Translations under genes and position numbers: made by a program | In this document: one piece after another, positions 2,614 through 35,258 of the stretch | Numbering within the stretch: the first letter of the stretch is position 1 | Layout: each line of letters starts with the position of its first letter | Origin: Thalassobaculaceae bacterium | GTDB taxonomy: Bacteria > Pseudomonadota > Alphaproteobacteria > Thalassobaculales > Thalassobaculaceae | Length of the DNA: 64,000 bases | Direction of reading: 5' to 3' | Assembly (NCBI GenBank): GCA_965228875.1 | Contig: OZ245843.1 | Span: forward strand, 4,417,971 to 4,481,970 | Notes under the pieces: model-generated | Database searches by the model: none | What the model was told of the DNA's origin: nothing | Seen by the model: only the letters and a program-made list of their open reading frames with translations

Positions 2614-2638
2614 GGTTCCCTCCTGGCGATCCTGATGT

Positions 2639-7232: not shown

Positions 7233-7688
7233 GTGGCGGTACGGTCTGTTTGGAGGACGATCGCTTGGTGGAGGACGGCGGCCGTTGCGGTCGCGCTGGC
7301 GACTGTTGCCGCCTTCTGGCCCTTCGACGCGCGGGCGGAGCAGAGGCTGGTCGTCGAACTGAACAAGCTCGAGAGTTTCGACGGCGGGTGCCGGACCTTC
7401 TTCCTCCTGCGCAACGCCGGGGGCGAGGCTTTCCAGTCGCTCGACATGTCGCTCGCGGTGCTGGACGGCGACGGCCGCATCGATCGCCTGCTGACCGTCG
7501 ATGCGGCGCCCGTACCGGCGGACAGGACGAGCCTGAAGCTGTTCGAGATTCCTGACGTCGCCTGCGACGGCGTCGGCGAACTGCTCCTGTACGAGATCGG
7601 CGCGTGCGCGACCGGATCCGACGACGGCGGCGACTGTTTCGACAGGGTCGAGTTGCGGTCGCGGGCGTCGATCCCGTTCGTGAAATAG
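7233..7688 (+). CDS. Exported hypothetical protein preceding exbBD (start uncertain)
   Basis: Signal-like N-terminus ending ARA-E; VELNKLE motif; four Cys; first gene of the exbB-exbD-exbD run. Confidence 0.7.
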   Translation: MAVRSVWRTIAWWRTAAVAVALATVAAFWPFDARAEQRLVVELNKLESFDGGCRTFFLLRNAGGEAFQSLDMSLAVLDGDGRIDRLLTVDAAPVPADRTSLKLFEIPDVACDGVGELLLYEIGACATGSDDGGDCFDRVELRSRASIPFVK

Positions 7689-7705
7689 CGCGCGACGGTC
7701 CTCCG

Positions 7706-8317
7706 ATGAGCATGTCTGCGATGATGGCTGCCGGAGGACCGATCGTTCTCCTTCTTCTGGTGCTCTCGGCGGTTTCGCTGGCGTTGATCGTCGCCAAGGC
7801 GGTGCAGATCGTCGGCGTCGCGCGTGGCCGGTCGACCCGGCTGGCGGCGGCTCGGGCCTGGGCCGAGAGCGGCGGCTCGGCGGCTGAGTTCGATGCCGGA
7901 GCCTTCGCCGGTCCGGTCGGACGCGTGTTCGAGGCCGCGGTTTCCGATCCGGCGGCGCCCGCGTCCACCCGCCACGCCCGTGCCGAGCGGGTCGCGCGCG
8001 GTGAACTGGCCGGGCTGCGCTCGACCCTCCGCCTGCTGGAGGTGATCGCTGTGGTCAGCCCGCTGCTTGGCCTCCTCGGCACGGTCACCGGGCTGATCGA
8101 GGCGTTTCAGGCGTTGGAGCAGGTCGGCGGCGGAGCCAACGCCTCGGTCCTCTCCGGCGGTATCTGGCAGGCGCTGCTGACGACGGCGATGGGGCTGATC
8201 GTCGCCATCCCCGCGGCGGCGGCGGGCAATCTTCTGGACGCAAGGGTCGAGGCCGCCGCCGTCGAGATGGAAAACCTGGCGAGCGTGGTGTTCGGCGAAA
8301 CGCTGGAAGCGCCTTAG
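7706..8317 (+). CDS. exbB: MotA/TolQ/ExbB proton channel protein
   Basis: SPLLGLLGTVTGLIEAF and GGIWQALLTTAMGLIVAIPA signatures. Confidence 0.93.
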   Translation: MSMSAMMAAGGPIVLLLLVLSAVSLALIVAKAVQIVGVARGRSTRLAAARAWAESGGSAAEFDAGAFAGPVGRVFEAAVSDPAAPASTRHARAERVARGELAGLRSTLRLLEVIAVVSPLLGLLGTVTGLIEAFQALEQVGGGANASVLSGGIWQALLTTAMGLIVAIPAAAAGNLLDARVEAAAVEMENLASVVFGETLEAP

Positions 8318-8331
8318 GGGCGGGCGGACAG

Positions 8332-8766
8332 ATGCGGCTGACGCGACGGCAGAGACCGAAAGCCCTGATCTCGCTGACGCCCCTGGTCGACGTCGTGCTG
8401 ATCCTGCTGGTCTTCTTCATGGTGACCTCAAGCTACCTTGATCTCGACGCCTTTCCGCTGGTCGACCGGACCGACCGGCCAACCGCCGACGGCGCGGTGA
8501 CGGGAGATGCCGGCGAAACCGAGGCAGGCGCACGGTCCTCCATGATGATCCTGCGCCTGGGGGCGGACGAGATGGCGCGGGGGCCGGGATTCGCGGTACC
8601 GCTGGCGCGGATGGAAGAGGTTCGCCCGATCCTGGCGGAGTATCCCCGGATCGCGATCCTGCCCTCGGGTGGCGCCTCGCTTCAGGGGCTCGTGACCGCC
8701 CTGGACGCGCTGACGGCCATGGGGATGGCCGATGTCCAGATCGTCCGGATCGGGGGCCAGCCGTGA
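8332..8766 (+). CDS. exbD: ExbD/TolR family protein
   Basis: ISLTPLVDVVLILLVFFMV transmembrane motif with the conserved Asp. Confidence 0.92.
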   Translation: MRLTRRQRPKALISLTPLVDVVLILLVFFMVTSSYLDLDAFPLVDRTDRPTADGAVTGDAGETEAGARSSMMILRLGADEMARGPGFAVPLARMEEVRPILAEYPRIAILPSGGASLQGLVTALDALTAMGMADVQIVRIGGQP

Positions 8767-9167
8767 ACCTGCGTCAGGACCGCGCCCGAACCCCGTATGA
8801 CAGCATCGCACCGCTGATAAATCTGTCGTTCCTGCTGCTGGTCTACTTTCTCCTGATCGGCACATTCGATGCGAGTGCGCCGTTCGACGTCTACCCGCCG
8901 GTGGCGCGGACCGGCCAGGATCTGCCGGCCGGCGGGTCGGTCCTGAGTCTCTCGGCCGACGGCGATGTGGCGTTCGACGGCGAGACCGTCGAACGGGAGA
9001 CTCTTGAAGCGGTGGCGCGCGCGGCGATCTCGGCGTCGCCGGAAAAGCGCTTCCTGCGGGTCAACGCCGATGGCCGGCTGCGCGTCCAAGAGATCCTGCC
9101 GCTGATCGACCTGATGGAGACGGCCGGAGCGACGACGGTGGTCCTGGTCGTCACTCCGCCCGGCTGA
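8763..9167 (+). CDS. exbD: Second ExbD/TolR family protein (Asn in place of the TM Asp)
   Basis: IAPLINLSFLLLVYFLL and RVNADGRL; 4-bp overlap with the first exbD. Confidence 0.88.
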   Translation: MNLRQDRARTPYDSIAPLINLSFLLLVYFLLIGTFDASAPFDVYPPVARTGQDLPAGGSVLSLSADGDVAFDGETVERETLEAVARAAISASPEKRFLRVNADGRLRVQEILPLIDLMETAGATTVVLVVTPPG

Positions 9168-9185
9168 CCGGATGGGGGGCGGGTC

Positions 9186-11015: not shown

Positions 11016-11199
11016 GAGCGAAGCCCGGCCGAGTCGAATTGACTCCCGGCCCCGGAAACACCACCATCCGACCTATACGGGAGGAGGCGCTCCCGGTGAT
11101 TCCGAATGACATCGCAGCAACGGGCGGCCGCTCGAAGCCGGTCGCGCATGTTTCGGGGCCGGGCGTCTCATGCCGGCCGATCGACGTGAGGAGGTGGGG

Positions 11200-11856
11200 A
11201 TGATCTGCAATCGCCGAGGATTTCGGGCAGGTGTTGTCGCGGCCGGAATCCTGTTCATGATCGGCGGCACCTTGCAGGCGGCCGACAAGAGCGTTCGGCA
11301 GTTCGGAGAGAGCGCGACCAAGTCTCAGATGCTCGACTATCTGCTGAACTCGCCGGCCCCAACAGCGGCCCCGGCGGCGGTCGATAGCGACCTGCTCAAA
11401 GGCCTGCCGGCCAGGGTCGATCCGAACAGCGTGGCGACGCGCGGCGGCATTCTCAAGCCGGAGCGCGCGACGCCGAGCGTGACGGCCCAGTCACCCTGTC
11501 CTGTGACGGACAAGGCGTTCGGTACAACCGTCAACTTCGCCGTCGGCTCCTACTATCTGGAGCCGTCGACCTTCTCGGTTCTGGGCGAGGTGGCCGACCT
11601 GATGACCGATGAGAAGCTGAAGGACTGCGCCTTCGTGGTCGAGGGACACACCGATTCCACGGGCAATCCGGATAAGAACAAGGTCCTGTCAAAGCAGCGG
11701 GCGGAGACGGTCGTGAAGTATCTCGAGAGCCATGGCGTGGCGGACTCGCGGATGGAACTCGAGGGCAAGGGGAGCACCGAGCCGGCGGACCCGGTCAATC
11801 CGGCGGCCGATATCAACCGGCGGGTCCAGTTCCGTTTCGTCGACCGTCAGGGCTGA
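11200..11856 (+). CDS. OmpA-like peptidoglycan-binding domain protein with signal peptide
   Basis: VNFAVGS...VEGHTDSTG...NKVLSKQRAETV...NRRVQF; GAGGAGG RBS. Confidence 0.92.
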   Translation: MICNRRGFRAGVVAAGILFMIGGTLQAADKSVRQFGESATKSQMLDYLLNSPAPTAAPAAVDSDLLKGLPARVDPNSVATRGGILKPERATPSVTAQSPCPVTDKAFGTTVNFAVGSYYLEPSTFSVLGEVADLMTDEKLKDCAFVVEGHTDSTGNPDKNKVLSKQRAETVVKYLESHGVADSRMELEGKGSTEPADPVNPAADINRRVQFRFVDRQG

Positions 11857-11900
11857 CGGTCTGGTCGGGCGATGGCACCACCGAGGCCGACGCGCAACGC

Positions 11901-12491
11901 TCAGCCCGTCGGCCTGCGGTGTCGGGTGGTCAGCGCGCCGTCCGTGAGCGTGTAAACCGCGACCTGCTCCCCGGCATCCTCCTCGGCGACGAAGCCGGCC
12001 AGGGGGCCGAAGAACGGTGTCAGGGAATCCGGTGTACCGGTCTTCAGGAAAAGGTGCAGCGCCCTCGGATCGTAGTAGCGGAAGGCGAGGCTGCGCCCGT
12101 CCTCGGTCATCACGATGTTGAATTTCCGCAGGTGACGCCGCAGCGCCGTCAGCTCGAGCGGCGACAGGATGTAGATCCCCCAGGCCTGCCCCCAGCCGTC
12201 GCGCAGGAGCCAGTCGGCCAGCAGCGACCCCTCCTCGATTTCCATCAGGTAGGGCGCGACTTCCGCAAGATCCTCGGCCAGTTCGCCCTGGTAGAGCGAA
12301 CGGACCCCCGCGCCCGTTCCCTTCAGTTTGCGGTGGATCGCGGTGTCGCGGGCCGCATCCAATGCCGCGAACAGGCGCACGCCGCCGTTCCCCGATCGGG
12401 CGTCGCGCAGGATGTCGGCGAGCAACTGGCGTCGCGCCTCGATGATGTTGCGGGAAGGGACGCCGGCATCCGGCGTGCCGATCATGCTCAT
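11901..12491 (-). CDS. DUF4123 T6SS effector chaperone (Tap-1/TEC-like)
   Basis: LFAALDAAR...SLYQG...VAPYL...WGIY...LRRHLRKF...FRYYDPRAL; ATGA-coupled to vgrG. Confidence 0.9.
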   Translation of the reverse strand: MSMIGTPDAGVPSRNIIEARRQLLADILRDARSGNGGVRLFAALDAARDTAIHRKLKGTGAGVRSLYQGELAEDLAEVAPYLMEIEEGSLLADWLLRDGWGQAWGIYILSPLELTALRRHLRKFNIVMTEDGRSLAFRYYDPRALHLFLKTGTPDSLTPFFGPLAGFVAEEDAGEQVAVYTLTDGALTTRHRRPTG

Positions 12492-14542
12492 GCGCCGGCC
12501 TCCCCGCAGATCTCGCAGAACGGAGTGCCCTTGACGGCGGCCTCGCGCAGGGCCGCGATCTGGCTGACGCGCTTGCGGGTGCCGGTACCCTTCGGCACGG
12601 TCTTCGGGCTGGTCAGGTCGGTCGTCGCACCCGGCTGGCCGTCATCGGCTGCCGCGGGCGCGTCCGGCGCCTGCGGGTTTGCGCTCAGGCTGCCCGATGA
12701 GCCGCCGCTGTTGATGAGAACCATCGGGCCCTGGATGGTCACGCCGCTGGGCCCCAGCGTGATGAAGCCCGCGCCGGCCTTGATGGTCAGCATCATCCCG
12801 GCCTCGATCATCACCTCCATGCCGGCCTTCACCGCGTAGTTCGTACCGGCCTTGGCGTGGAATTCCTGGGCGATGTCGAGGGAGTCGATACCGCCGATCC
12901 GGGTTGACCGGTCGCCACCGACATCTTCGTGCTGGTCGCCGCCGACCTTCTCGAACCGATCGTTGACGACGGTCTCGTGATGCTGGTCGCCCACATGGCT
13001 CCGCAGCGTCTCCTTGATCCGGAGGTCCATGTCCTTCTGGCCGTGCACGAAGATCTGCTCGCTACCGGCCTTGTCCTCGAACCGCAATTCGTTGAACCCG
13101 CCGCCGCCGGGAGAGGAGTTCGTCTTGATCGTCGAGCGGGTCTTGTGACCGGGCGGATCGTAGACCGGTTCGTTGACGGCGTTGTGGACGACCCCGGTGA
13201 TTAGCGGCCGGTCGGGATCTCCCTCCAGGAACGAGACGGCGACCTCCATGCCGATCCGCGGGATGAAGGTCTGGCCGAAGCGGATACCCGCCCATCCCTG
13301 GGCGACCCTGATCCAGCAGGAGCTCTTCTCGTCGTAGGCGCCGCGCCGATCCCAGTGAAACTGCACCTTCACCCGGCCGTGCCTGTCGACGTGGATCTCC
13401 TCGCCGCCCGGACCGGTGACGATGGCGGTCTGCAGGCCGTCGATCGTCGGTTTCGACGTGACCCGCGGAGCGCGGAACTGGGTGTCGGCGGGAATGCACT
13501 CGAAGGTCCCGCGGTATCGGGCGCCTCGCGGTTCGCCGAACTCCCAGTTGTTCTCCGCTTCGTGGGCGACGCGGGTGACAAGGTGGGAGACGTTGTAGCC
13601 TTCCACCTCGTGCTCGACGAGGTCGAAGGTGAAGCCTGGACAGATGGTGAACTCGTTGGTGGTTCCGGTCCGCATCCGACTGCGCGCCTCGAGGGCCTCC
13701 ATCCGGACCGAGGCGAAGGTGTCGCCGTCGCTCATCTCGCGGTAACGGCCGGGATAGTCGAAGACCTCCAGATCCTGGGCCGCCGGCAGGCCGGCGTTCG
13801 ATCCGATCCCGGCGATCAGCGAGGCCCGCGGCTTGAGCGGGTCGAAGTCGTTGAGCGTGACCCGGCCCGAGGTCACGCTTGCCACCTCCCGCCATTCCGA
13901 CACGCCGGACTCGTCGTCCCCCATCTCCTGGCGGGCCGCCCGAAGGGTGGCGCCACCGGCGATCGGCTGGTGCGCCATGGCCGTGTCGGCGAGCACCAGC
14001 GTGTGCCGGTCGTCCTCATGCTCGAAGTAGTAGTAGATCCCCTCTTCCTCGAAGAGCCTGGACAGGAAGGCGAACGAGGTCTCGCGGTACTGGACGCAAT
14101 AGGTCCGGTTGGCGAAGGCGCCGGACGTCTCGACGCGGAAATCGGTGAAGTTCATCTCGCCGAAGATCTCCTCGGCGATGGCGATCACGGATTTCTCCTG
14201 GAAGATCCTCGAGTCGGCCCGCAGCGACAGGAACCAGAACCAGGGACGCAGCGTGAGGGAGTAATGGTGGACCTGGTCGCTCTGCCGATAGCCGTCATAC
14301 TCGAAGGCGGCGACATACCCGTGAAAGTGCCGGTCGCGGCCCTCGACCGTCGTCAGCGTCACCACCGCCGGCAGCCCGAGAATCTCCGACGGGTCCGCGA
14401 TCGGATCGAGGGCGAAGGCCCGCACCCGGAACGCGAACAGTTCCGAGAGCGCTTCCTCGCCGGCCACCGATACGGCGAAGAGCCGGTCCGGTCCGAGCGG
14501 GGTGGCCATCCGCAGCAAATGGCTCGACTGGGCTCGATCCAT
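12488..14542 (-). CDS. vgrG: T6SS spike protein VgrG
   Basis: YCVQYRETSFAFLSRLFEEEGIYYYF, GRVKVQFHWDR, SCWIRVAQGWAG, PRIGMEVAVSFLEGDPDRP, FNELRFEDKAGSEQ; short C-terminal extension ending PFCEIC; start set at MDRAQSS. Confidence 0.97.
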   Translation of the reverse strand: MDRAQSSHLLRMATPLGPDRLFAVSVAGEEALSELFAFRVRAFALDPIADPSEILGLPAVVTLTTVEGRDRHFHGYVAAFEYDGYRQSDQVHHYSLTLRPWFWFLSLRADSRIFQEKSVIAIAEEIFGEMNFTDFRVETSGAFANRTYCVQYRETSFAFLSRLFEEEGIYYYFEHEDDRHTLVLADTAMAHQPIAGGATLRAARQEMGDDESGVSEWREVASVTSGRVTLNDFDPLKPRASLIAGIGSNAGLPAAQDLEVFDYPGRYREMSDGDTFASVRMEALEARSRMRTGTTNEFTICPGFTFDLVEHEVEGYNVSHLVTRVAHEAENNWEFGEPRGARYRGTFECIPADTQFRAPRVTSKPTIDGLQTAIVTGPGGEEIHVDRHGRVKVQFHWDRRGAYDEKSSCWIRVAQGWAGIRFGQTFIPRIGMEVAVSFLEGDPDRPLITGVVHNAVNEPVYDPPGHKTRSTIKTNSSPGGGGFNELRFEDKAGSEQIFVHGQKDMDLRIKETLRSHVGDQHHETVVNDRFEKVGGDQHEDVGGDRSTRIGGIDSLDIAQEFHAKAGTNYAVKAGMEVMIEAGMMLTIKAGAGFITLGPSGVTIQGPMVLINSGGSSGSLSANPQAPDAPAAADDGQPGATTDLTSPKTVPKGTGTRKRVSQIAALREAAVKGTPFCEICGEAGA

Positions 14543-14705
14543 GTGAGGTCCGCTTCTCCCTGAGCCGGGTCTCGGTCGCATCATATCCAGGGCCGGGGGC
14601 CTCGGCCATAGATCGAATGTCTCGGGGTGGTGTAGCGCAAGTTGCGCGTTTCCTCTACAAGTTCCCCGGATCGTTGGGGTGGCAGTTCTTATTCTGGAGA
14701 GCACG

Positions 14706-18251: not shown

Positions 18252-18259
18252 GGACACAC

Positions 18260-25895: not shown

Positions 25896-26031
25896 GATCA
25901 AGGCGGTGTGCGCTAAGTAGCATTGACGATAGTTCGCTGGCGGAGTTCCCTAAGTGCGGGAAAATCTATCCGGCGGAGTTTGAGGCAGGGACTATTCGTG
26001 GCGCGTCGAACCGGGCGTGGGATGGGGGAGC

Positions 26032-27054
26032 ATGGCCGACAGTCAGACGGGCGCCGAGGCGCCGAAGGAAACGGACGGCGAGGCGGTACCCGCCGAGGGG
26101 CAGGAAGCCGCCGCGGCGTCACCACCTGCAGCGGCGTTCTCGGAGAATATCGCGGCGATCGACAGGACCACGGCGGCGGCGGTTGCGACGCTGCGTCGGG
26201 CGGAGCCGAAGCACAAGGGATCGGACCCTCTCTACAACATTCCCTGGTATCTGTTCCTCGGCCCCTCGTCGGAGTCCGTGGAACAGCTGCTGCGCGCGGT
26301 GCCGAACGGCGACATCCTTGCGCCGGGGCAGGCGGAGCCGGCGGGCGAGACGCTTCGCTGGTGGAACCTGCGACGGGCGATCGGTATCTCCTGGCCTTCA
26401 ACGCTGCTCTGCTCCCATGACGACCGGGAACGCTGGCAGGTCGTGGAGCATGCGATGGAATCGCTGCTCAAGGCGCGCAAGCATCTGCCGGTGAACGGGA
26501 TCGTGGTCGTGGTTCCGGTCGCCGACCTCGTCGACGGGTCGGGGCGGCTCGACAGACTGGCGCGGGTGATCCGCGATATCGTCAACGAGATGCGGACCAC
26601 GCTTAAGTTCAGCTTTCCGACGACGGTGGTCGTCACCGGCCTGGATCGGCTCACGGGACATGACGCGTTCTTCGGTGGCCTCGACCGGACCACGGAGCAG
26701 GCGCTCGGGATCCGGCTGGACGATGCCATGCGGCAGGCGGATGTCAGGGCGACGATGGCGACCACCTTCGCGCAGTGGCGCGACCGGCTGCACGAGATCC
26801 GCATGTCGCTGCTGCGGCAGCCGGCCGAGAAGGTCGACATGCGGGGGGTGTTCCGGTTCATCCCCGAGTTCGAGCGGCTGGAGGCGCCGCTGGCGGCACT
26901 GGTCGAGACCCTGTTCTCCGAGAGTCCGGGAGACAACCGGCGACCGCAGTGGCGGGCGCTGTATCTGACGGCGCCGGGCAGCAGGGAACCGCATCTCAAG
27001 GACCTGTTCGATCACTTTCTTCCTGTCGACGCCTCGCTCGCGACGCGGGCGTGA
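26032..27054 (+). CDS. tssM: Truncated TssM/IcmF: cytoplasmic NTPase-like domain only
   Basis: DPLYNIPWYLFLGP, PVNGIVVVV, FPTTVVVTGLDRLTG...FF, WRALYLT, LKDLFDHFL..DASLA match the IcmF N-terminal domain. No TM segment; stops before the periplasmic region. Confidence 0.78.
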   Translation: MADSQTGAEAPKETDGEAVPAEGQEAAAASPPAAAFSENIAAIDRTTAAAVATLRRAEPKHKGSDPLYNIPWYLFLGPSSESVEQLLRAVPNGDILAPGQAEPAGETLRWWNLRRAIGISWPSTLLCSHDDRERWQVVEHAMESLLKARKHLPVNGIVVVVPVADLVDGSGRLDRLARVIRDIVNEMRTTLKFSFPTTVVVTGLDRLTGHDAFFGGLDRTTEQALGIRLDDAMRQADVRATMATTFAQWRDRLHEIRMSLLRQPAEKVDMRGVFRFIPEFERLEAPLAALVETLFSESPGDNRRPQWRALYLTAPGSREPHLKDLFDHFLPVDASLATRA

Positions 27055-27120: not shown

Positions 27121-28530
27121 ATGACCGAACGACGTAGCCTTCTGGACGTGTTCACCCCGGTGATGCTGGACGTCCTCGATGTCGAGGATGGCCTCGCCCG
27201 GGGCGATGGCAGCGTGCCCTCGGCGGAGCAGAAGACGGAGGAATGGCTGGCGACGATCGACGAGGCGGTCGCCACGGCCGAACGCCTCGGCCACAGCAGC
27301 CAGAACGCAGAGATCGCCAAGCGTGCCGTGATCGCCTGGATCGACGACATCATGGGGCTCCGGCGGGACTGGTACGGCCGGGTCACCAACCTTCAGTCCC
27401 GCGTGTACAACGGCGCCTCGGTGCTCGGCCGAAAGTTCTACGAGGACCTGGAGGCCCTCAGCAAGGACAGTCAGAGAGACGTCTTCGACGTGTTCTTCGT
27501 CTGCCTCGCCCTCGGCTTCAAGGGAGAGAAGCTCCTGTACGCCGGATCCGACGTGGACCGCGAGGCGGCCCGCCTCAAGCAGGATGTCAGTTTCCACCTG
27601 TCGACGGACCGCATCGATCTCGACAGGCTGCCCGGCCAGAAGATCTTCGCCCAGCCCTATCAGCAGGACGACCCGCCGCCGCCGCCGCCGGGCCCGCCTC
27701 TGCCGCGATCCTATGGCAAGATCCTTGCTGCGCTGGCGGCGGTTCTGTTGCTGGCGGCGATCGGCGCCGGGTACTGGCTGACCCGGAGCGAGACCGACTG
27801 GCGGGCGCATATCCAGGCGGCGGCCGAGGAGGCGGTTGGGCGCTACGAATGCGCCAGCGTCTCGGTCCGGACGGCGCCGGACCTGTCGCTGTCCTACAAG
27901 GGTTTCGTCGGGTCGGAGGACGATCGCGGCGCGCTCGAGGCGGACCTGCTGGGCATCGAGCGGGTGGAGCGGGTCACCGGCACGCTTGAGGTCATGCCTT
28001 GGCCGCTTTGCGCCGTGCTTGTGATCCTGGAGGATACGGTGCTCAACGACGGTTCCCGGTCGGAGACTCCGACGGTTGCGGTCAACCATCGTGACGGGAG
28101 GTATCGTCACCGCGACCTCCTGGTCACTGACGTGACGGTGCCGGCGGCGGAGCCCGGTCACCTTCTGGTCAGCTATGTCGGGCAGGCGGACACCGTCACC
28201 CATCTGTTCCCGAACGAAGACGTCGTTTCCAGCCGGGCCGATCCGAAGATGCGATTGCGCCTCGGATACGCGGAAGGCGCGGCCTCCGATGCCGGCGGGT
28301 ACGATGTGCAGACCAACCTCATGTATCCGCTGTCGGCGGACCCCGAAGGGCCCAGTCTGGTGTTCGCTGTCTGGAGCGCGGAACCGATCCTCGACGGCTT
28401 CGCGCCGGTGTCGCAGCAGCGGACCGACGAGTTCCTTGCGGCGCTCCGCGCGGCTGTGGATGCGTCCAATGCGTCGGACGACGCCGCCAGGCTCTATGCC
28501 CGCACGGTGACGATCACCGTGGCCCGGTAG
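27121..28530 (+). CDS. tssL: TssL/DotU fused to a periplasmic Cys-paired/DUF4384-like module
   Basis: AKRAVIAWIDDIM...LQSRVY...GRKFYEDL...VFFVCLALGFKG (DotU); poly-Pro; TM helix; then YEC...GFVGS...PWPLC...YRHRDLL...VSYVGQADTVTHLFP. Confidence 0.85.
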   Translation: MTERRSLLDVFTPVMLDVLDVEDGLARGDGSVPSAEQKTEEWLATIDEAVATAERLGHSSQNAEIAKRAVIAWIDDIMGLRRDWYGRVTNLQSRVYNGASVLGRKFYEDLEALSKDSQRDVFDVFFVCLALGFKGEKLLYAGSDVDREAARLKQDVSFHLSTDRIDLDRLPGQKIFAQPYQQDDPPPPPPGPPLPRSYGKILAALAAVLLLAAIGAGYWLTRSETDWRAHIQAAAEEAVGRYECASVSVRTAPDLSLSYKGFVGSEDDRGALEADLLGIERVERVTGTLEVMPWPLCAVLVILEDTVLNDGSRSETPTVAVNHRDGRYRHRDLLVTDVTVPAAEPGHLLVSYVGQADTVTHLFPNEDVVSSRADPKMRLRLGYAEGAASDAGGYDVQTNLMYPLSADPEGPSLVFAVWSAEPILDGFAPVSQQRTDEFLAALRAAVDASNASDDAARLYARTVTITVAR

Positions 28531-28573
28531 ACGGCGCGGGTACGGGGCTAGGCAGGGGGAGGAGAAGCACGGG

Positions 28574-29773
28574 ATGGATGCTGGCGTGTTTTCGGCCGAC
28601 GCGGTGCTTCATGCCGCGCTGTATGGCACGTTCATCGTCATGATCGTTGCGATCGCCGCCAACGACTGCGCCGGCGCGGTCGCGCTGGTCTGCGTCGACG
28701 GCACGGTCGACATGCGCGCAGCGCAGGTCCTGATCGCGGTGTTCCTGGTTGTGGGCGCCGTGTTCGTCGCGCCACCCGTCCTCGATCGCCTGATTCTGCC
28801 GCTGATCGCCCTGGAGGACTTCCGCGCCGCACCCTTTGCCGGACCGACGGTCCTGTTCAGCGCCGTCGTGCCGCTGGCGCTGGCGACGGTGTTCGGCGTC
28901 CCGGTCTCCGCATCGGCTCTGGTGGTCCTGGCCGTCCTCGGGGTCATCGTCGAGCGCGGAGGAGGCGTCGATGCCGCCGCGGCTGGCCGGCTGGCGTTCG
29001 CACTGCTGCTGCTGCCCGCCATAGCCTGCGGGGTCGGTCGAGGGTTGGCGTGGGCGTTTCGGGACCGAGCCGTTTCGGGCTCCCGGCCGCGCGATGCGCT
29101 GACCTGGGCTCTCCCGGGACTGGCGGCGTTGCTCGCCGCAGCGACCGTCGTCGTCGTCGCGCTGCTGACGGATCTGCACGGGCCCGTCGCGCAGGTCTCG
29201 GCGATCGTCGCGGGCATCGCTGTCATCGCGGCCTTCGCGGTCGGCGGCGTGTATCTGCTGCGCATTCGCCGGTCGCCGTTCTGGGTGTCCAACGACCGTC
29301 AAGGGTTCGAGGCGGCGCATGGATCGCTGTCGCTGGCGTGCGGCGCCCTCGGCGGCCTGTTGCTCAGCGGTGTCAATGTCGGCATGGCGATTGCGCTTTT
29401 GTCGGTCCTGCTGAACGGGGGAGGCGCCGGCGTGAGCTTCGCCAGCCCGCCGCTCTGGCTCGGCCTCGGGCTGGCGTTCCTGACCGTTCTGCTGGCCGGC
29501 CATCATCTGGCGGGACGACTGGAGCGTGCCGGACTGACGCCGGAGCCGTCGCAGGCCGCGATCGGGACCATAGGCGCGTTCGTCGGCGCCGCGCTGGCGG
29601 CCGTCGTGCACGCCCCACTGCCCCCCAGCCTGACACTGGCATCCGGACAGTGCGGAGCGGCGGGTGACCTCCGCACAACGGCGCGGTGGCTCGGCATCGG
29701 ACTCCTGGTCGGCCTGCTGTCCTTCGCCCTTTCCTTTGCCGTGGATCTGGCGCTCCGCCTTCTGGCGGAGTGA
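28574..29773 (+). CDS. Polytopic membrane protein, divergent PiT (inorganic phosphate transporter)-like
   Basis: Many TM helices; AANDCAGA resembles GANDVANA; ATVFGVPVSAS resembles AT..G.PVSTT. Confidence 0.6.
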   Translation: MDAGVFSADAVLHAALYGTFIVMIVAIAANDCAGAVALVCVDGTVDMRAAQVLIAVFLVVGAVFVAPPVLDRLILPLIALEDFRAAPFAGPTVLFSAVVPLALATVFGVPVSASALVVLAVLGVIVERGGGVDAAAAGRLAFALLLLPAIACGVGRGLAWAFRDRAVSGSRPRDALTWALPGLAALLAAATVVVVALLTDLHGPVAQVSAIVAGIAVIAAFAVGGVYLLRIRRSPFWVSNDRQGFEAAHGSLSLACGALGGLLLSGVNVGMAIALLSVLLNGGGAGVSFASPPLWLGLGLAFLTVLLAGHHLAGRLERAGLTPEPSQAAIGTIGAFVGAALAAVVHAPLPPSLTLASGQCGAAGDLRTTARWLGIGLLVGLLSFALSFAVDLALRLLAE

Positions 29774-29794
29774 CGCCGAAGGGAGCTCGTTGCC

Positions 29795-30499
29795 ATGCTG
29801 TCCGCCGCGCTCAGTCAAGTCCATCCGACCGTCGGTTTCGCCGTCCTGTTGTGTCTGGCCGCCGTGGCCGTGTGCGTGACCGCCATGCCGGTGCTCCGTG
29901 GGGCGGCGGCGGGCGTCGATCCCATGACGCTACGACGCGCGGCGCGCGCCGCGCGGGCGCCGCACCGGCCGCTGCTGTCTCTGTTCAACACGGGCCGGCG
30001 CCGGATCGTCGCCCTGGCCGGCATCGGGACGCTTGTTGCCGTGTTCGGGTTCGGCAGCCTCGGTCTGGTGGCGTTCGACAGCAGGATACGGGGTCAGAAT
30101 TCGGCGATCGCCGAGCGTCACCGCCTGGAGGGCGAGATCGAGGCGGCGCGGGCGCAGACGAAGGAGGCGGAACGTCGTGCCAGCGAGGCGCTGGCGGCAA
30201 GGGACGAGGCGCATCGCGAGGAGATGCTGGACCAGGAGGCGCGCTACCAGAAGCGGATCGAGGAGCTCAAGGCGGAACACCAGGCGGAGGTGAACAGCCT
30301 GACCCTGAAGTTCCAGGAGGACCTGGCGCGCCAGGGGGAGACCGACGAGTTGAAGAACTCGGTCAGCAGCATGCAGATGCAGCTTCTGGAGCAGACCAAC
30401 AGGACGCTGACCATCGAACTCGACCGGGCGAAGGAGATCATCCTGGATCAGGCGGCCCGGATCCGGGCGCTCGAGGAGAAGCTGGCGGAAGGCAACTGA
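29795..30499 (+). CDS. Hypothetical membrane protein with long C-terminal coiled coil
   Basis: Two hydrophobic segments, then an E/R/Q/L-rich heptad region; host-like codon usage. Confidence 0.75.
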   Translation: MLSAALSQVHPTVGFAVLLCLAAVAVCVTAMPVLRGAAAGVDPMTLRRAARAARAPHRPLLSLFNTGRRRIVALAGIGTLVAVFGFGSLGLVAFDSRIRGQNSAIAERHRLEGEIEAARAQTKEAERRASEALAARDEAHREEMLDQEARYQKRIEELKAEHQAEVNSLTLKFQEDLARQGETDELKNSVSSMQMQLLEQTNRTLTIELDRAKEIILDQAARIRALEEKLAEGN

Positions 30500-30539
30500 C
30501 GGACCCGTTCATGGCAGGAACACGGCGGATGGAACGCCC

Positions 30540-30890
30540 ATGATCATCGCCAACAGTCAGGTGACGGCCATGCGGTCGGTCGGGTGGACGGCGTGGCGGC
30601 AGCGGCATGCCGACGCCCTCGAGTCCCTGCTGCCCGAAATCGCGGCCAGTGAGGGCGACGGTTGGATCGACCTGGTCGATACGGTTCTGCGCCACGCCGA
30701 CATGGCCGGATTGACCGGGTTCGAGGAGGTGCGCGCCTTCGGCTATGCGTCCCTCACCCTCGGCATCGGGTTCGAGGGCCGGGAGGATCTGCCGGGCCTT
30801 GACCGCGCGATGGAGAAGACTGGATCGGCGCGGGCTGCGGCGCTGTGGCAGGTCTGCGCCGACGCCAGCCACGATCCGGAGGCAGTATGA
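30540..30890 (+). CDS. Small hypothetical protein, possible T6SS co-chaperone
   Basis: 116-aa ORF, ATGA-coupled to the next gene. Confidence 0.6.
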   Translation: MIIANSQVTAMRSVGWTAWRQRHADALESLLPEIAASEGDGWIDLVDTVLRHADMAGLTGFEEVRAFGYASLTLGIGFEGREDLPGLDRAMEKTGSARAAALWQVCADASHDPEAV

Positions 30891-32248
30891 GGGTCGCGAC
30901 ACGGCCGATGAACCCGCAGGCGGTGGCCGCCGCGAACGCCGCGACGGATGCCCGGTTCCCGAGCCGGCCGCGGCCGGGCGACCCGGAGTACGGGGCTTTC
31001 CGCAAGACCTGGATGGACTCCTATGTCGAGGCGGGCGGCGGCGTCGAGACGACAACGCCCGAGGAGGCGGTCCGCGCCGCCGAGGCGGACGCGGCTGAAG
31101 ACACCGCCGCGGATGGCGCCAGCCGTGATGTGATCGAGCAATGCGCCGAGACGTCCGGTCCGCCTCCGCCCCCGCCGCCGGCGGATACATCGGGGTGCTC
31201 GTGTCAGATCGCGTCCCTGGGTGTGGTGTGCGAGCATGGCCGGTCCGCCCGGGATGGCCTGCTCATGGTTGTAGCCGACAATGCGTTCGGCGACGAGGTG
31301 ACGGTCACGCCCGCGACGTCGGGTGCCTGCGAGGGGAAGATCACCGTCCGGGCGTCGGGCAAGCGGGAGTTTCCGGTGAAGGACACCGCAGCGCACAGCT
31401 TCAAGACCTCGGGGCGGGGAACCCTGTACCGGGGCCTGTTCGACCTGCACAGAATCCCTCCGGTCAGCACGACGGTCTCGGCCGAGGCGTGCGGGCGTCA
31501 GGCCGAGGCGGTGAAGGTCGAGGCTTATCCATCGAGCAAGCTGACCGGAAAGCTCGATCTTCAGAAGCTGGTCGAAGACTACAAGGGCATCGCCGCCTAT
31601 CTGCCGATCCGGGCCTCGGGAGAGAAGAAACCGATCAAGCCGCTCGACGCACCGAAGAAGAAGAATTGGGAGTTGGATACCGGAACCTCGATCAGCATCG
31701 AGGTTCAGTGGAAGGAGGATTCTGACAGCCATCGGGCGTACTGCGGCCATACCCTTGCCGGTGCGATGGATCCCGTGTTCGGCGTGGCGGCGTCGTATCC
31801 GATCTTCGGGATCCCGGTTCCGCCGCGCGTGGACCGCTACATCAAGGCCGGGCTGTACCTGAATATCGGCCTGGGCACCTCGATCAGCGCCGGCTGCGAG
31901 TGGGCCTATTGGCCCGACACGCGCGAGACCGAGTGGCACGCGGTGCGGATCGAATTGAAGGGGAGCGGCTCGCTCGAGATCGCCGCCGAACTGATCGCCC
32001 TCAGCGAGGATGTCGCTCAGGCGAAGATCGCGGGCAAGGCGACGATCAGCGTTCAGGGAACCGGTCAGAAGGGGTCCGGTAATGCGCCGGAACTGAAGGG
32101 CCAGGCGACCCTCGAGCCTCTGACCGCCACCGTGATCGGCAAGATGGCCTGGGGGTTGGTCGAGACCGAGCGATCCTGGACGGTGACGGAGGCCATGAAC
32201 TTCCCGGAGAAGGAGTTCGTCTGGAAGCTCGACAAGGAGCTGAACTAG
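30887..32248 (+). CDS. Hypothetical protein, candidate T6SS effector
   Basis: No signal peptide; N-terminal helical segment (RKTWMDSYVEAGG), poly-Pro linker, Cys-rich then beta-rich body; at the end of the T6SS operon. Confidence 0.65.
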   Translation: MRVATRPMNPQAVAAANAATDARFPSRPRPGDPEYGAFRKTWMDSYVEAGGGVETTTPEEAVRAAEADAAEDTAADGASRDVIEQCAETSGPPPPPPPADTSGCSCQIASLGVVCEHGRSARDGLLMVVADNAFGDEVTVTPATSGACEGKITVRASGKREFPVKDTAAHSFKTSGRGTLYRGLFDLHRIPPVSTTVSAEACGRQAEAVKVEAYPSSKLTGKLDLQKLVEDYKGIAAYLPIRASGEKKPIKPLDAPKKKNWELDTGTSISIEVQWKEDSDSHRAYCGHTLAGAMDPVFGVAASYPIFGIPVPPRVDRYIKAGLYLNIGLGTSISAGCEWAYWPDTRETEWHAVRIELKGSGSLEIAAELIALSEDVAQAKIAGKATISVQGTGQKGSGNAPELKGQATLEPLTATVIGKMAWGLVETERSWTVTEAMNFPEKEFVWKLDKELN

Positions 32249-32249
32249 G

Positions 32250-32960
32250 ATGGCCATCGACACGGCGCTTCGTTTCGCTCCGGCGACACCGGGGCTGCGG
32301 GTGTTCCTGAACGGGTTCCTGCTGGTGAACGACCGCGATGGCGAGGCGTCGACGACACGCGTCGGAGCCTTTCTCGCTCCGGGTACCAACGTCGTCGTGC
32401 TGGATGCCGGGGATGATCTGCAGGCGGCGGGCCGGGTCGTCGTCACCCCTGGAGACGATGCGTTCGCGACGCCACTGGTCGATATCTCGCTGCCCGACCC
32501 CGATGCGCCGGGCACGGTGGCACAGGATCGTTTCGACCCGCCGGCCGGGACGCCGGCCTGGCGCTGGACCCGGGCGGAAGCGGTGGAGGGCGATGTGGTC
32601 GACGACCTGCACCGGTTCCTGTCGACGGTCGCCGAGGCCTTTGCCGCGCCCGATGTTGGGCGGCTGCTCGCCCTGTTGGCGACGAAACACGAGGAACTCG
32701 GCCAGAGCTTCGGCGTCGGGCGTGCGCGGATGGACACGGGCCTCTCCCAGGGGCTGGCGACGCGTCGCGAGCAGGGTGGCTTGGCGGTCGACCTGGCGTC
32801 GCCGGAGGATCTCGATCTTGTCTGGTCGCCCGACCGGACCCACGTCCGACCGCTCAGGGGGGACGGGAGCGACGCGCTCCATCTCCTGGTCGGCGGTGCA
32901 CCCCAGCCGTTCGAGCTGCATGTCGGCAGGCTCGATGGATCCTGGGCGGTTCTTCGGTAG
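32250..32960 (+). CDS. Hypothetical protein, candidate immunity protein
   Basis: Starts 1 nt after the candidate effector stop; AAGGAG RBS. Confidence 0.6.
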   Translation: MAIDTALRFAPATPGLRVFLNGFLLVNDRDGEASTTRVGAFLAPGTNVVVLDAGDDLQAAGRVVVTPGDDAFATPLVDISLPDPDAPGTVAQDRFDPPAGTPAWRWTRAEAVEGDVVDDLHRFLSTVAEAFAAPDVGRLLALLATKHEELGQSFGVGRARMDTGLSQGLATRREQGGLAVDLASPEDLDLVWSPDRTHVRPLRGDGSDALHLLVGGAPQPFELHVGRLDGSWAVLR

Positions 32961-32985
32961 CCCCGTGGCGCGCGCGAGACCCCGA

Positions 32986-33462
32986 ATGATGCAGCAGGCC
33001 GGCTTCGCCCTCATCCTGTTCGGCGTCGCCCTGAGCGCCGCCGGCGCCCTGGTGTTCTGGCAGTCGCTGTCCCAGACCCGGTTCCACCCGATCGCGGCGA
33101 CCGTCCTCGAGAGCGGTATCGGCCTGACCGGATCCCGCTACTCCGGATCGTCGAAGGCCTCGCGCTACTGGGAACTGCAGGTCCGCTACAGCTACGAGGT
33201 GGCGGGCCGGCGTTACGAGAGCACCTTCGTCTCCAGCAAACCGATCCGTGCCGTCGCCGACGACGGGGCGAAACCCACCGCGGAACTGGAGGCGATCGCC
33301 GCGTCGTTTCCGGTCGGCGCGACGGTTCGGGCCTGGGTCGCTCCCGACGATCCGGAGCGCGTCGTCCTGTTCCCGGCCGAGGATGCGGAATGGATGCTGC
33401 TGGCGATCGGGATCGCGGTCCTCGCGGTCGGGATCGGCGTACGCGTCCACTCCTCATCGTGA
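32986..33462 (+). CDS. DUF3592-like two-TM membrane protein
   Basis: TM, then ATVLES...VRYSYEVAGRRYES...FPVGATVRAWVAPDDPERVVL, then TM. Confidence 0.8.
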   Translation: MMQQAGFALILFGVALSAAGALVFWQSLSQTRFHPIAATVLESGIGLTGSRYSGSSKASRYWELQVRYSYEVAGRRYESTFVSSKPIRAVADDGAKPTAELEAIAASFPVGATVRAWVAPDDPERVVLFPAEDAEWMLLAIGIAVLAVGIGVRVHSSS

Positions 33463-33629
33463 GCGGCGATGCCGGCGCGGCATCAGTTGCGTTGCATATC
33501 GGCAACATCTCCTGAAAATAGTATCGGCCTTCCGGATGATTCCCGTCATGTGGAGGGCGCGCGAGGTTGCTCGCCCGTGGCGCGTGGAGGTACCTTGGTT
33601 AAAATCCTTTAACTCTGCGTGGGGGCGTT

Positions 33630-35258
33630 ATGAGAAAGCCACTGAAGGGCATGGTTGGCGCGCTGACGGCTGCGCTGATGGCCAGCGTCTCGACGCAGGC
33701 GATGTCGGGGGATGTGCTGATCGTCAATGGATCGTCGGCAACGAGTGAAACGTTCACGACGTCGCAGATCACCAATAACTTGACGACGAAGCTGGAGGCG
33801 CGCGGCAACACCGTTACGGTGACGGACGGCATTGAAGGCGCGTTGAGCGGATACTCTCAAGTCTGGGATCTCAGGTTCTCCAACGCGTCACTCGCCGCCG
33901 CCGATCAGACATCGCTGGTCGAGTACATCCAGGGAGGCGGCAACCTCTTTGTCATGGGCGAGAATGATAATTTCCCGCTCCGCAACACCTCCGTGCTGTC
34001 GCTGATCGAACAAGCCGGTGGTGGGACGATCACGTTGGACTCGACTGTCGACAGTTCCACTCAGACACTCATCAACAGCATGGGTACGGTTACCTACTCG
34101 GCGCCGAACTTCGCGACCTCTTCGGGGACAGGTTCGTTTCTGAGTTTCGACGGCGCAGGCAACGGCTCGGCTATTTCCTGGGAAACGGGAACGTTGACCA
34201 ATGCGTCCCAAGGTGCGCTCGCGACCGTATTCGACGTCAACTTCATGGACGATACCGCGCTCGACGGTGAAGAGGCGCTGTTCAACCTGATCCTCGATCT
34301 GATCGAGTCAGGGGTTATCGTGGTCGAGGACACCGTGACCACCGACGAGGTGCAGGAGAGCATCGTTTCCGAGACCACGCGGGTGACGGTGCGCGCGATC
34401 GCCCGGCAGGTGGCGGCGGCGATTCAGAACCGGGTCCGCACCGTCGCCTCTGGAGGCGTCCTGCAGGCCATGCGGGACGGCAAGTCGACCGGCCTGAACG
34501 CCGGCGACGGCATCAGCATGCCGATCGCGATCTGGGTCGACGCGACCTACTCCTCGCTGGACAACGACTCCCCGACCGAGGCCTTCGACGGCGACACGCT
34601 GACCAGCCTCGTGGGCGTCGACGTGGTTCCGTTCGAGAACTTCGTGGTCGGCGTCGCCGTCGGCGTCGAGACCACGGACCTCGATCTCTCCACCTCGAAC
34701 GGCGACAAGGAAACCGACGGCGTGACCGGCTTCGTCTACGCCGGCTACCAGTTCAACGAGTATGTCGGCGTCGACGCGCTGGCGGGCTACGGGGCCTTCT
34801 CGACCGACCTGTCGGAGCAGCGCAGCGGCGGCGGCGTCGTCACCGGCGACTACGACTCCAACCGCTACCTGTTCTCGGCCAACCTGAACGGGACCTACCA
34901 ATACGATCAGGTCCTGTTCACCGGTACGGTCGGCTACCTCTTCACCCAGGAGAACGTCGACTCCTACACCGCCAGCGACGGGGTCGAGGTCGATCCGGGC
35001 AACACCAATCTCGGCCAGGGCGTTCTCGGCCTGGAGGTCGGGTACGTCTTCGACACGGTCTATCCCTACATCCGGGGCCAGATCGAGAACGACTTCGTCA
35101 CCGAGAGCGGGGCGGACTCGACCGGCGGAAACATTGGCGCTGGTGTGTTCTATTCGCCCATGACGAACCTGACCCTGGGCGCGAACACCTCCTACGATGT
35201 CGGCCGCGAGGACGAGACGAACTTCTCCATCGGCGTCAGCGCGCGCTATCAGTTCTGA
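33630..35258 (+). CDS. Autotransporter-type outer membrane beta-barrel protein with a small passenger domain
   Basis: Signal peptide; passenger; linker helix; GLNAGD motif before W-initiated barrel strands; C-terminal ARYQF (Bam signal Phe). Confidence 0.88.
   Translation: MRKPLKGMVGALTAALMASVSTQAMSGDVLIVNGSSATSETFTTSQITNNLTTKLEARGNTVTVTDGIEGALSGYSQVWDLRFSNASLAAADQTSLVEYIQGGGNLFVMGENDNFPLRNTSVLSLIEQAGGGTITLDSTVDSSTQTLINSMGTVTYSAPNFATSSGTGSFLSFDGAGNGSAISWETGTLTNASQGALATVFDVNFMDDTALDGEEALFNLILDLIESGVIVVEDTVTTDEVQESIVSETTRVTVRAIARQVAAAIQNRVRTVASGGVLQAMRDGKSTGLNAGDGISMPIAIWVDATYSSLDNDSPTEAFDGDTLTSLVGVDVVPFENFVVGVAVGVETTDLDLSTSNGDKETDGVTGFVYAGYQFNEYVGVDALAGYGAFSTDLSEQRSGGGVVTGDYDSNRYLFSANLNGTYQYDQVLFTGTVGYLFTQENVDSYTASDGVEVDPGNTNLGQGVLGLEVGYVFDTVYPYIRGQIENDFVTESGADSTGGNIGAGVFYSPMTNLTLGANTSYDVGREDETNFSIGVSARYQF

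Follow-up and report, generated by a model that had tools for sequence, protein, structure and literature searches.

How is a type VI secretion system (T6SS) anchored in the cell envelope when its gene cluster encodes only part of the usual membrane complex? The question is raised by positions 7233-35258 of a stretch of 64,000 nucleotides (the window, from contig OZ245843.1) of a Thalassobaculaceae bacterium, an alphaproteobacterium. A preliminary description made from the DNA letters alone had proposed here a T6SS with a remodelled membrane complex next to an ExbBD/TonB-like motor. We find that the locus is a real, intact, unusual and rare T6SS variant. The reading we favor, with moderate confidence, is that a horizontally acquired, T6SS-i-like variant is accompanied by a conserved T6SS-associated envelope cassette that has an accessory role. 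Gene content, the homology of a periplasmic module, conserved linkage and purifying selection carry this reading.

A standard tail on a reduced membrane anchor

As the G+C content of the window is ~68%, genes were picked by third-position G+C and then scanned against Pfam and NCBIfam (Table 1). Every gene call of the preliminary description was reproduced by one or the other. All open reading frames (ORFs) of the T6SS locus are open, the genes at 17191-33462 lie tightly spaced on one strand, and the remainder of the window outside the locus consists of housekeeping genes. The hcp, tssE, tssF, tssG, tssK, vgrG and DUF4123 genes are intact as claimed, being present, open and matched by Pfam, with the TssE, TssF, TssG and TssK matches all exceeding the cutoffs. 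The vgrG ORF opens at 15010, its likely start being an ATG at 14542 with a Shine-Dalgarno-like site. The fusion of TssB to TssC is also real: VipA, VipB and VipB_2 fall within a single ORF, which scored 405.5 bits against TIGR03355 (cutoff 271.5). Among the window ORFs scanned there was no match to TssA (ImpA_N) or ClpV, and PAAR was likewise not matched at the locus.

The anchor proteins are also as first described. TssM consists of the cytoplasmic domain only, matched by PF14331 alone. It covers positions 68-363 of the 1168 positions of TIGR03348 (121.9 bits, under the cutoff of 388). Where a full-length TssM has three membrane helices and, in the periplasm, the IcmF-related and IcmF_C domains, it has no hydrophobic segment or membrane helix, no Walker A motif and neither of the periplasmic domains. 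TssL is a DotU protein in which a membrane helix (residues 201-219) is followed by ~250 extra residues, the unusual periplasmic module. No ORF scanned in the window matched TssJ (PF12790), which in this genome was found only at a canonical locus at 1.94 Mb.

The short TssM has relatives of its own kind. An exhaustive search gave 2,751 relatives, and 39 of the best 75 were of 420 residues or fewer. In a tree, 22 of the 25 helix-less short forms, that of the window included, fell on one side of a branch (Shimodaira-Hasegawa-like approximate likelihood ratio test, SH-aLRT, 91), and the closest partner of the window protein was a protein of Niveispirillum irakense. Examples of the soluble short forms are N. 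irakense WP_029013081.1, P0267 and P0277. Judged from these sequences, short soluble TssM is a conserved family in other organisms. It is only 26% identical to the N-domain of the canonical TssM of the same genome. When it was used as a tblastn query against plasmids only full-length TssM was matched (≤29% identity), and a class-level sample of 400 other genomes gave no further short TssM with this query, a result that holds for the sample and does not imply absence.

A periplasmic module common to TssL and the TonB-like protein

The 609-residue protein encoded downstream of the exbD genes was called TonB-like. The name is justified by its architecture of an N-terminal helix and an Ala/Pro-rich linker. 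It is not justified by a TonB_C domain: no Pfam family matched the whole protein at E ≤0.01, and none that was relevant matched its C-terminal 230 residues at E ≤10. The preliminary description further held that this protein ends in the same module as TssL. As BLASTP of the two proteins was marginal (E 0.053), profile methods were used. Alignment A4 was composed of the C-terminal 240 residues of the window TonB-like protein and 13 relatives of that C-terminus, which are 30-41% identical to it and have two invariant Cys residues. Comparison of the module profile with TssL residues 238-453 by hhalign gave a probability of 95.2% (E 2.5e-8 over 204 columns) with both Cys residues aligned. When all six-frame ORFs of the 4.96-Mb genome were searched with the module hidden Markov model (HMM), only the TonB-like protein (E 5.1e-91) and TssL (E 3.1e-10) were recovered. 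Thus, a relationship that was weak by BLASTP and Pfam was confirmed by hhalign and hmmsearch. The Pfam family closest to the module is DUF4384 (PF14326), which scored 13 bits on the TssL C-terminus (E 0.12, below the gathering score) and gave no match on the window TonB-like protein. Homologs of the TonB-like protein scored 26.8-51.8 bits, four of the five scanned being above the cutoff of 27.

An AlphaFold2 (AF2) model of the module had a predicted local distance difference test score (pLDDT) of 86 and a predicted template modelling score (pTM) of 0.82. In this model residues 6-74 resemble the ring-building motifs of type III secretion systems. The best match was CdsD, with a root-mean-square deviation of 2.7 over 66 residues and a Z of 8.4 that is barely above the background of the tool (typical best 7-8); YscD (Z 6.7), EscJ (6.3), PrgK (6.1) and BON domains also matched. 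A wide structural search aligned residues 86-240 to immunoglobulin (Ig)-like sandwiches (Z ~6), and a Foldseek search of the PDB with the module returned nothing at E ≤0.001. The module of ~230 residues thus resembles, as modelled, a ring-building-motif/BON-like subdomain (the first ~70 residues) followed by an Ig-like DUF4384 sandwich. Complex prediction for the TonB-like module with the TssL module scored 0.00, which gives no verdict either way.

In other T6SS loci the module is found on kinases. With the module HMM, the PpkA-type kinase of the T6SS on a Pseudosulfitobacter plasmid was matched at E 5.8e-8. Two kinases whose genes adjoin the cassette in an alphaproteobacterial metagenome-assembled genome (locus L166) were matched at E 2.2e-29 and 7.8e-28. 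The presence of the module on PpkA-type kinases in exb-linked relatives suggests an input into T6SS activation. In L166 the Ser/Thr kinase genes (2079-4307 and 7503-9305, both on the minus strand) end in the DUF4384 module and flank an orf151-exbBDD-TonB-like cassette, and two TssC genes lie 5-8 kb upstream of the edge of the locus.

Conservation of the cassette beside other T6SS clusters

The exbB-exbD-exbD genes were confirmed by PF01618 and by PF02472 (Table 1). The best NCBIfam model for ExbB was TolQ, below that model's cutoff, and the protein is one of six MotA/ExbB paralogs in the genome. The cassette does not open with these genes. The ORF at 7233-7688 (orf151), with which the locus starts, is not a tss gene; it is the first gene of the exb cassette, and its product is exported and conserved. 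It matched neither Pfam nor NCBIfam. Its AF2 model (pLDDT 90) had IrmA (5ek5) as the nearest fold (Z 12.2, 107 residues aligned).

Linkage was examined in a genome scan made with the ExbB alignment, in which 80 loci were kept of 585 confirmed relatives; all cassette counts are from these 80 loci, which were searched by tblastn with all window proteins and with the module HMM. Homologs of orf151 were directly upstream of exbB in 21 of the 80. The TonB-like module was present in 13, all of them in genomes having a T6SS, and in nine of these 13 loci tssBC, tssF and tssG were within 10 kb. In a further locus (L113) the layout is that of the nine, and the contig ends before the TonB-like gene. The other four module loci all come from genomes that encode TssC; in one case the TssC gene shares a contig with exbB at a distance of ~15 kb. 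Among the remaining 66 ExbB loci no tss genes were seen. Nearer to the window, the best non-self ExbB relative (P0140, 59% identity) marks a sister lineage. Cluster members of P0140 come from contigs 28,083 bp and 15,073 bp long, the same two sizes as the contigs that carry P0002 (58%) and P0128, relatives of the fused sheath.

The cassette gene order is the same in three annotated loci (L145, L107 and L123). In these and in the Pseudosulfitobacter plasmid the T6SS order is tssA-B-C-hcp-tagJ-E-F-G-clpV-vgrG-...-fha-tssK-tssL(OmpA)-tssM(1,194 aa)-pppA-ppkA. Divergent from tssA in the annotated loci are orf145-exbB-exbD-exbD and a gene for a DUF4384 protein, then a caspase gene and one for a YceI-OmpA protein. 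The related cassettes repeatedly include OmpA proteins. The C14 proteins that adjoin the cassette in L145, L107 and L123 have no tblastn similarity to the window caspase. Plasmid p4 of Pseudosulfitobacter also encodes, in its T6SS region (L212:4365-6787), an M15 peptidase and a second caspase with Sel1 repeats and a peptidoglycan-binding domain, and thus periplasmic caspase-like proteins recur around these T6SS clusters.

In a preset test of co-occurrence, the exb, TonB-like and OmpA genes recurred beside tss genes in other genera, with the caspase recurring at the family level. The barrel, PiT-like and coiled-coil genes had no relatives in any fetched locus. Hence, the claim that the extra genes belong with the tss set holds for the exb, TonB-like, OmpA and caspase genes, the other three being putative members only. 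The genes of the cassette are not chance neighbors, given that other genera have them next to a T6SS too, and the sequence comparisons point to a conserved, apparently undescribed T6SS accessory.

The T6SS cores of the exb-linked relatives differ from that of the window. They carry TssL-OmpA, their TssM open frames are of 1,187-1,441 residues in four of five genomes (720 residues in one), and Pfam-detectable TssJ was found in none of the five. We considered the fused sheath as a mark of a clade joining the window to the exb-linked systems and rejected it, since tssB and tssC are split there and TssF falls in a separate clade: in the TssF tree ten exb-linked systems form one clade (100/100) with the window outside. 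Since the cassette accompanies full-length TssM and TssL-OmpA elsewhere, it would be a general T6SS accessory and not a TssM substitute.

This last finding bears on the proposal that the tail docks on a different trans-envelope apparatus, possibly coupled to proton-motive force. The proposal gains from the cassette being a conserved T6SS neighbor and loses from the company of full-length TssM elsewhere. In its explicit form, an Exb-powered complex composed of the TssL module and the TonB-like, OmpA, PiT-like, coiled-coil and barrel proteins would stand in for TssJ and for the periplasmic portion of TssM. Such a complex would suit a soluble TssM lacking any periplasmic domain, the lack of TssJ at the locus, a ring-building-motif-like subdomain in the shared module and the tight one-strand spacing of the genes at 17191-33462, and the exb-linked relatives also lack a detectable TssJ. 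Wholesale replacement of a T6SS membrane complex has a precedent in Bacteroidota, as described in passages from PMC10781749. Nevertheless, we think replacement unlikely, given the full-length TssM and TssL-OmpA found with the cassette in other genomes and the fact that no fetched locus had a relative of the barrel, PiT-like or coiled-coil gene. An autotransporter-type barrel is also too narrow for the Hcp tube. Moreover, the TssJ-less T6SS of Agrobacterium works without such genes, to judge from parts of PMC3702570.

A second alternative is that the cassette is an independent envelope-maintenance or anti-attack system that travels with T6SS islands, for example in Tol-Pal-like repair or in sensing T6SS hits. 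The make-up of the cassette is Tol-Pal-like (TolQ as best ExbB model, a TolA-like rod and an OmpA/Pal-like protein), its plasmid neighbors are related to peptidoglycan (the M15 peptidase and the caspase with Sel1 and PG_binding domains), and at least one genome lacking TssC (G072) has a module-less orf151-exbB-exbD-exbD. An independent system would not, however, be expected to have its module fused to the core protein TssL here and to a T6SS-activating type of kinase elsewhere, nor does the module occur in any other protein of this genome, and we judge this alternative distinctly improbable. The occurrence of the cassette with two distinct T6SS cores, together with the module on T6SS-specific membrane proteins, argues for a functional tie in which the cassette serves as an accessory or a control device rather than in place of TssM.

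Other T6SS loci in the same genome

The genome has a complete canonical cluster at 1.93-1.95 Mb encoding TssA, B, C, E, F and G, ClpV, Hcp, TssJ, K and L, a TssM of 1,217 residues, TagF and PpkA. An extra sheath-like fused paralog of 593 residues with weak VipA and partial VipB matches (L012:18209-19990 on the plus strand, equal to G000:C1:1940208-1941989) adjoins tssA of this cluster and is divergent from it; a similar 687-residue frame is present in a genome of the same genus (G045). A third T6SS locus (G000:C1:4524850-4547000; L009 and L010) begins ~43 kb past the end of the window. It encodes a second, independently diverged fused TssB-TssC of 820 residues (34% identical to that of the window), TssA, TssL, a SPOR-domain protein and a TssM-like protein of 1,348 residues in which only the N-domain was recognized. 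ClpV and TssJ were not seen among the ORFs scanned there.

The preliminary description had named service of this tail by a full tssJ and tssM elsewhere in the genome as a refuting condition, and such genes are present at 1.93-1.95 Mb. The tail could dock on a membrane complex supplied in trans, together with TssA and ClpV, by the 1.93-1.95 Mb locus or the 4.52-4.55 Mb locus, with the local short TssM and TssL being auxiliary. The canonical cluster encodes all that would be required (TssJ, TssL, TssM, TssA and ClpV, with TagF and PpkA), and the third locus has TssA, TssL and the long TssM-like protein. We consider it improbable that either serves this tail, as the short TssM is so distant from the canonical N-domain and belongs to a separate soluble short-form family of other organisms. 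All five substitutions in its gene (see below) are synonymous, an indication that it is maintained for a separate function. In addition, none of the 62 other genomes from this order carries the locus; TssC matches of the canonical kind were seen in one of these genomes (G045).

Rarity, phylogeny and selection

Only three clusters close to the fused sheath, at 99%, 58% and 57% identity, were found among 5.8 billion clustered proteins, the rest being ≤41% identical. None turned up when 185,579 species genomes were scanned with the alignment of close relatives, and the 62 other genomes of the order also gave none (best identity 39%). A metagenome scan returned only relatives of 30-42% identity without the cassette, and the sister-lineage contigs were not retrieved.

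Among solved sheaths, those of T6SS-i come nearest to that of the window (E 3.6e-87 to 2.2e-76), Francisella IglB being more distant (E 3.9e-45). In the TssF tree the window groups on long branches (92/88) with the third locus of the genome and a gut-metagenome group, both of which have fused sheaths. True sheath fusion was found in 17 of 90 loci tested, with 54 split and 19 undetermined. The annotated fused-sheath loci keep TssL and a long TssM, and L027 and L084 also keep TssJ. L027 and 12 similar loci on metagenome contigs (L023, L028-L032, L035, L039, L045, L046, L048 and L051), several of them labelled as human gut, have fused TssB-TssC frames of 704-737 residues; L027, the sole annotated member of that group, encodes TssJ, TssK, TssL, TssA and a TssM of 1,051 residues. 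Hence, each of the three traits (a fused sheath, a short soluble TssM and the lack of TssJ) is found on its own elsewhere, and it is their combination that is rare.

In two sequencing runs the locus is present and identical. Short pieces of a diverged strain in a third run show 27 substitutions, of which 20 are synonymous and seven non-synonymous, giving a ratio of non-synonymous to synonymous polymorphism (pN/pS) of ~0.13, a value from a small sample at low contig depth. The changes were synonymous in 5/5 cases in the short TssM, 2/2 in TssL and 4/4 in TssK. As sequencing errors would inflate the non-synonymous class, the estimate is conservative, and the tss genes are under purifying selection. 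The relaxed selection expected of a decaying T6SS was not seen. That the locus is a decaying or non-functional remnant is hardly credible to us, although TssA, TssJ, ClpV and PAAR were not found there, TssM is short relative to the canonical form and without Walker A, and no effector gene follows vgrG-DUF4123 on its strand. A remnant would not be expected to have every ORF open and a pN/pS this low, to have a sister lineage at 58% identity that retains the full-length fused sheath or to have a short TssM that belongs to a conserved family.

A proposed role for the cassette

Apart from the fusion of TssB and TssC into a single polypeptide, the tail and baseplate are standard, and the inner-membrane anchor is reduced to a soluble TssM domain without Walker A and a TssL bearing the periplasmic module. 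The cassette encodes a proton-driven stator of the Tol/Ton type (ExbB and two ExbD proteins) and a rod resembling TolA/TonB that carries the module at its end. Its other products are the small exported beta-sandwich (orf151), a peptidoglycan binder of the OmpA type and a caspase-like protease of the periplasm. In the mechanism we propose, the shared module may join the motor rod to the T6SS anchor in the periplasm, either directly or via a common partner, the anchor partner being TssL here and the activating kinase PpkA in related systems. Proton-motive force or the state of the envelope would then govern the place or the time of T6SS assembly, firing or passage through the wall. The cassette would be an accessory and not a simple replacement of TssJ and TssM. 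We infer the physical contact, the energy coupling and any roles of the downstream membrane genes from these arrangements.

A bolder version is possible but doubtful. The T6SS would be coupled to a dedicated Tol/Ton motor driven by proton-motive force, the rod docking via homotypic contacts of the ring-building-motif plus Ig module on TssL here or on PpkA in roseobacters, such that proton flow opens the wall or the outer membrane or triggers assembly or firing. With this coupling in place, the lineage could have dispensed with TssJ and with everything in TssM that lies in the membrane or periplasm, leaving an energised membrane complex of a different build. That the locus specifies a new membrane complex built from the motor is a hypothesis that we regard as about equally doubtful.

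Several results weigh against the accessory-cassette reading. The exb-linked relatives have separate tssB and tssC genes and a full-length TssM, so that the cassette cannot be tied to the remodelled anchor, and the window TssBC is only 30-33% identical to the exb-linked systems. These relatives are mostly Roseobacteraceae/Paracoccaceae kin, and the counts therefore overstate independence. Linkage of exbB to a fused sheath in the sister lineage, which is the only close one, is indicated by matching contig sizes rather than by the DNA itself. The module is also difficult to detect, as both window proteins fall short of the Pfam DUF4384 cutoff, a word-index search with TssL residues 225-469 matched only TssL itself, and the CdsD similarity is near background. 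Finally, the canonical T6SS of the same genome could supply the missing TssJ, TssM, TssA and ClpV, and no RNA run with the locus was listed among the sequencing runs.

How the T6SS tube crosses peptidoglycan and the outer membrane, and how TssJ-less systems anchor to the outer membrane, are open questions. A conserved, proton-driven Tol/Ton-like cassette would be a testable candidate for energy- or envelope-state-dependent T6SS control, because its output domain is the module found on TssL or on an activating kinase. The roseobacter plasmids provide culturable organisms for testing the coupling. The window lineage is an extreme form (fused sheath, soluble TssM and no TssJ) that could reveal the minimal needs of a T6SS membrane anchor.

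Other genes of the locus

The OmpA, caspase-like, PiT-like, coiled-coil and barrel genes named in the preliminary description are all present, the coiled-coil protein by its two hydrophobic segments and the others by Pfam matches (Table 1). The caspase-like ORF opens at 14679, is divergent from vgrG and encodes a protein with a hydrophobic N-terminus. Its SGHG (residue 647) and DSCQSG (residue 702) motifs are presumably the His-Cys catalytic dyad of the C14 family. The match of the PiT/PHO4-like protein spans only profile positions 1-252 of 350, and no NCBIfam model matched it. The barrel protein has a signal-peptide-like N-terminus. For the ORF at 30887-32248, a search of the Atlas with a 467-residue version opening at 30845 gave an uninformative best score of 0.83.

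There is no effector gene after vgrG-DUF4123 on their strand (11857-11900 and 11901-15010, minus). The cargo of the DUF4123 adaptor may be encoded elsewhere, one candidate being the lipoprotein alpha/beta-hydrolase at 17191-18138, which from its sequence could be a lipase-type effector or an envelope enzyme. No tRNA, integrase or flanking direct repeats mark island borders, and a terminator scan gave fewer sites than in shuffled sequence. Directly upstream of the exb cassette is a gene for a Crp/Fnr-family regulator (6324-7022, plus strand), beside NapC/NirT and molybdopterin oxidoreductase genes, a neighborhood suggesting that oxygen or redox state may regulate the locus.

Table 1 Genes of the T6SS locus and their supporting matches (coordinates are those of the window).
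Gene product	Position	Strand	Evidence and remarks
orf151, exported ~115-aa beta-sandwich, 4 invariant Cys	7233..7688	+	first exb-cassette gene
ExbB/TolQ-family proton channel	7706..8317	+	PF01618 96.5 bits; ORF opens 7604, likely start 7706-7724
ExbD/TolR paralog 1	8332..8766	+	PF02472 41.4 bits
ExbD/TolR paralog 2	8763..9167	+	PF02472 61.2 bits
TonB/TolA-like protein, 609 aa	9186..11015	+	N-terminal helix 16-34, Ala/Pro-rich linker, C-terminal ~230-aa module, 2 conserved Cys
OmpA-family peptidoglycan-binding protein	11170..11856	+	PF00691 71.7 bits
DUF4123 effector adaptor/chaperone	11901..12491	-	PF13503 103.4 bits
VgrG spike	12488..14542	-	Phage_GPD 298.4 bits, Gp5_trimer_C, Phage_base_V
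Exported caspase-like (C14) protein, long N-terminal region	14706..17216	+	PF00656 41.3 bits (cutoff 21.4), residues 574-777
Alpha/beta-hydrolase lipoprotein	17191..18138	+	Abhydrolase_1 weak, below cutoff; GFSGG motif, lipobox VSAC
Fused TssB-TssC sheath	18260..20191	+	643 aa; VipA residues 10-132, VipB 208-513, VipB_2 526-627
Hcp tube	20320..20826	+	PF05638 81.9 bits
TssE (gp25-like)	20950..21438	+	PF04965 51.4 bits
TssF	21435..23318	+	PF05947 549.3 bits
TssG	23282..24430	+	PF06996 190.1 bits
TssK	24423..25895	+	PF05936 203.4 bits
Short soluble TssM	26017..27054	+	345 aa; IcmF-related_N only, PF14331 113.9 bits
TssL (DotU) with periplasmic C-terminal module	27121..28530	+	PF09850 65.6 bits on residues 7-217
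PiT/PHO4-like polytopic membrane protein	28574..29773	+	PF01384 40.6 bits (cutoff 33.7); many hydrophobic segments
Two-helix membrane protein, coiled-coil-like region	29795..30499	+	hydrophobic segments 13-31, 71-89; weak helical-domain matches only
116-aa ORF	30540..30890	+	no Pfam/NCBIfam family
~453-aa ORF	30887..32248	+	no Pfam/NCBIfam family; opens 30845, ATG 30887 overlaps upstream stop
236-aa ORF	32250..32960	+	no significant family
DUF3592 membrane protein	32986..33462	+	PF12158 46.6 bits; long ORF from 32338 overlaps previous gene, likely start near 32986
Outer-membrane protein, autotransporter-type beta-barrel	33630..35258	+	PF03797 84.5 bits, residues 301-523; TIGR01414 49.6 bits

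Comparison with known systems

Within the literature searched, subscription journals being outside its scope, we found no description of the exb cassette, of a natural TssB-TssC fusion or of a soluble short TssM. In the same searches DUF4384 and type VI secretion were not found together, and T6SS with ExbB/ExbD or with TolQ/TolA gave nothing pertinent. The plasmid-T6SS survey PMC9113992 places the Rhodobacteraceae/Roseobacteraceae systems under i3; a term search of its full text showed that ExbB, ExbD, TolQ and caspase are unmentioned. The 2023 review PMC10433429 gives, in the portions concerned, subtypes i-iv and only peptidoglycan-binding accessories.

With the canonical T6SS-i (Sci-1 of enteroaggregative Escherichia coli, as outlined in portions of PMC10433429) the window shares TssB/C, Hcp, VgrG, TssE/F/G/K and TssL, and its sheath is closest to that type. 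It differs in the fused sheath, the soluble TssM, the non-OmpA module of TssL and the lack of matches to TssJ, TssA and ClpV.

The T6SS of Agrobacterium tumefaciens, also an alphaproteobacterial system, keeps a full-length TssM, TssA and ClpV. Like the window system it has no recognizable TssJ and, according to sections of PMC3702570, it functions nonetheless. It has the PpkA/PppA/Fha/TagJ accessory set in common with the exb-linked roseobacter systems. The same sections do not report an Exb cassette. The T6SS-iii of Bacteroidota, with its TssNQOPR complex, provides a precedent for a locus-encoded, non-canonical envelope-spanning part (PMC10781749, in excerpt). As described there T6SS-iii lacks TssL and TssM and uses unrelated proteins, whereas the window keeps TssL and the N-domain of TssM.

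The module also sets the window apart from known T6SS control. PpkA, PppA and Fha form the threonine-phosphorylation pathway of T6SS activation. None of the three is encoded at the window locus, where the module is on TssL rather than on PpkA-type kinases as in the relatives. The 'evolved' TssL proteins and TagL/TagN/TagP/TagW/TagV, which add peptidoglycan binding to the membrane complex, include periplasmic TssL extensions and cluster-encoded OmpA proteins, as set out in parts of PMC10433429. The window extension, in contrast, is not an OmpA peptidoglycan-binding domain, and the same module is present on the motor-linked rod and on PpkA kinases.

With the Tol-Pal and ExbBD-TonB systems the cassette shares the ExbB/TolQ and ExbD/TolR families, a single-pass rod with a long linker and a periplasmic domain at its C-terminus, and an OmpA/Pal-like partner. 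The window rod, however, lacks TonB_C and ends in the ring-building-motif-like plus DUF4384 module. The cassette further differs in its pair of ExbD genes, its additional exported beta-sandwich and its linkage to a T6SS rather than to TonB-dependent receptors or tolB. A motor of the same superfamily that drives a secretion system is already at hand in GldLM of type IX secretion (PMC8986121).

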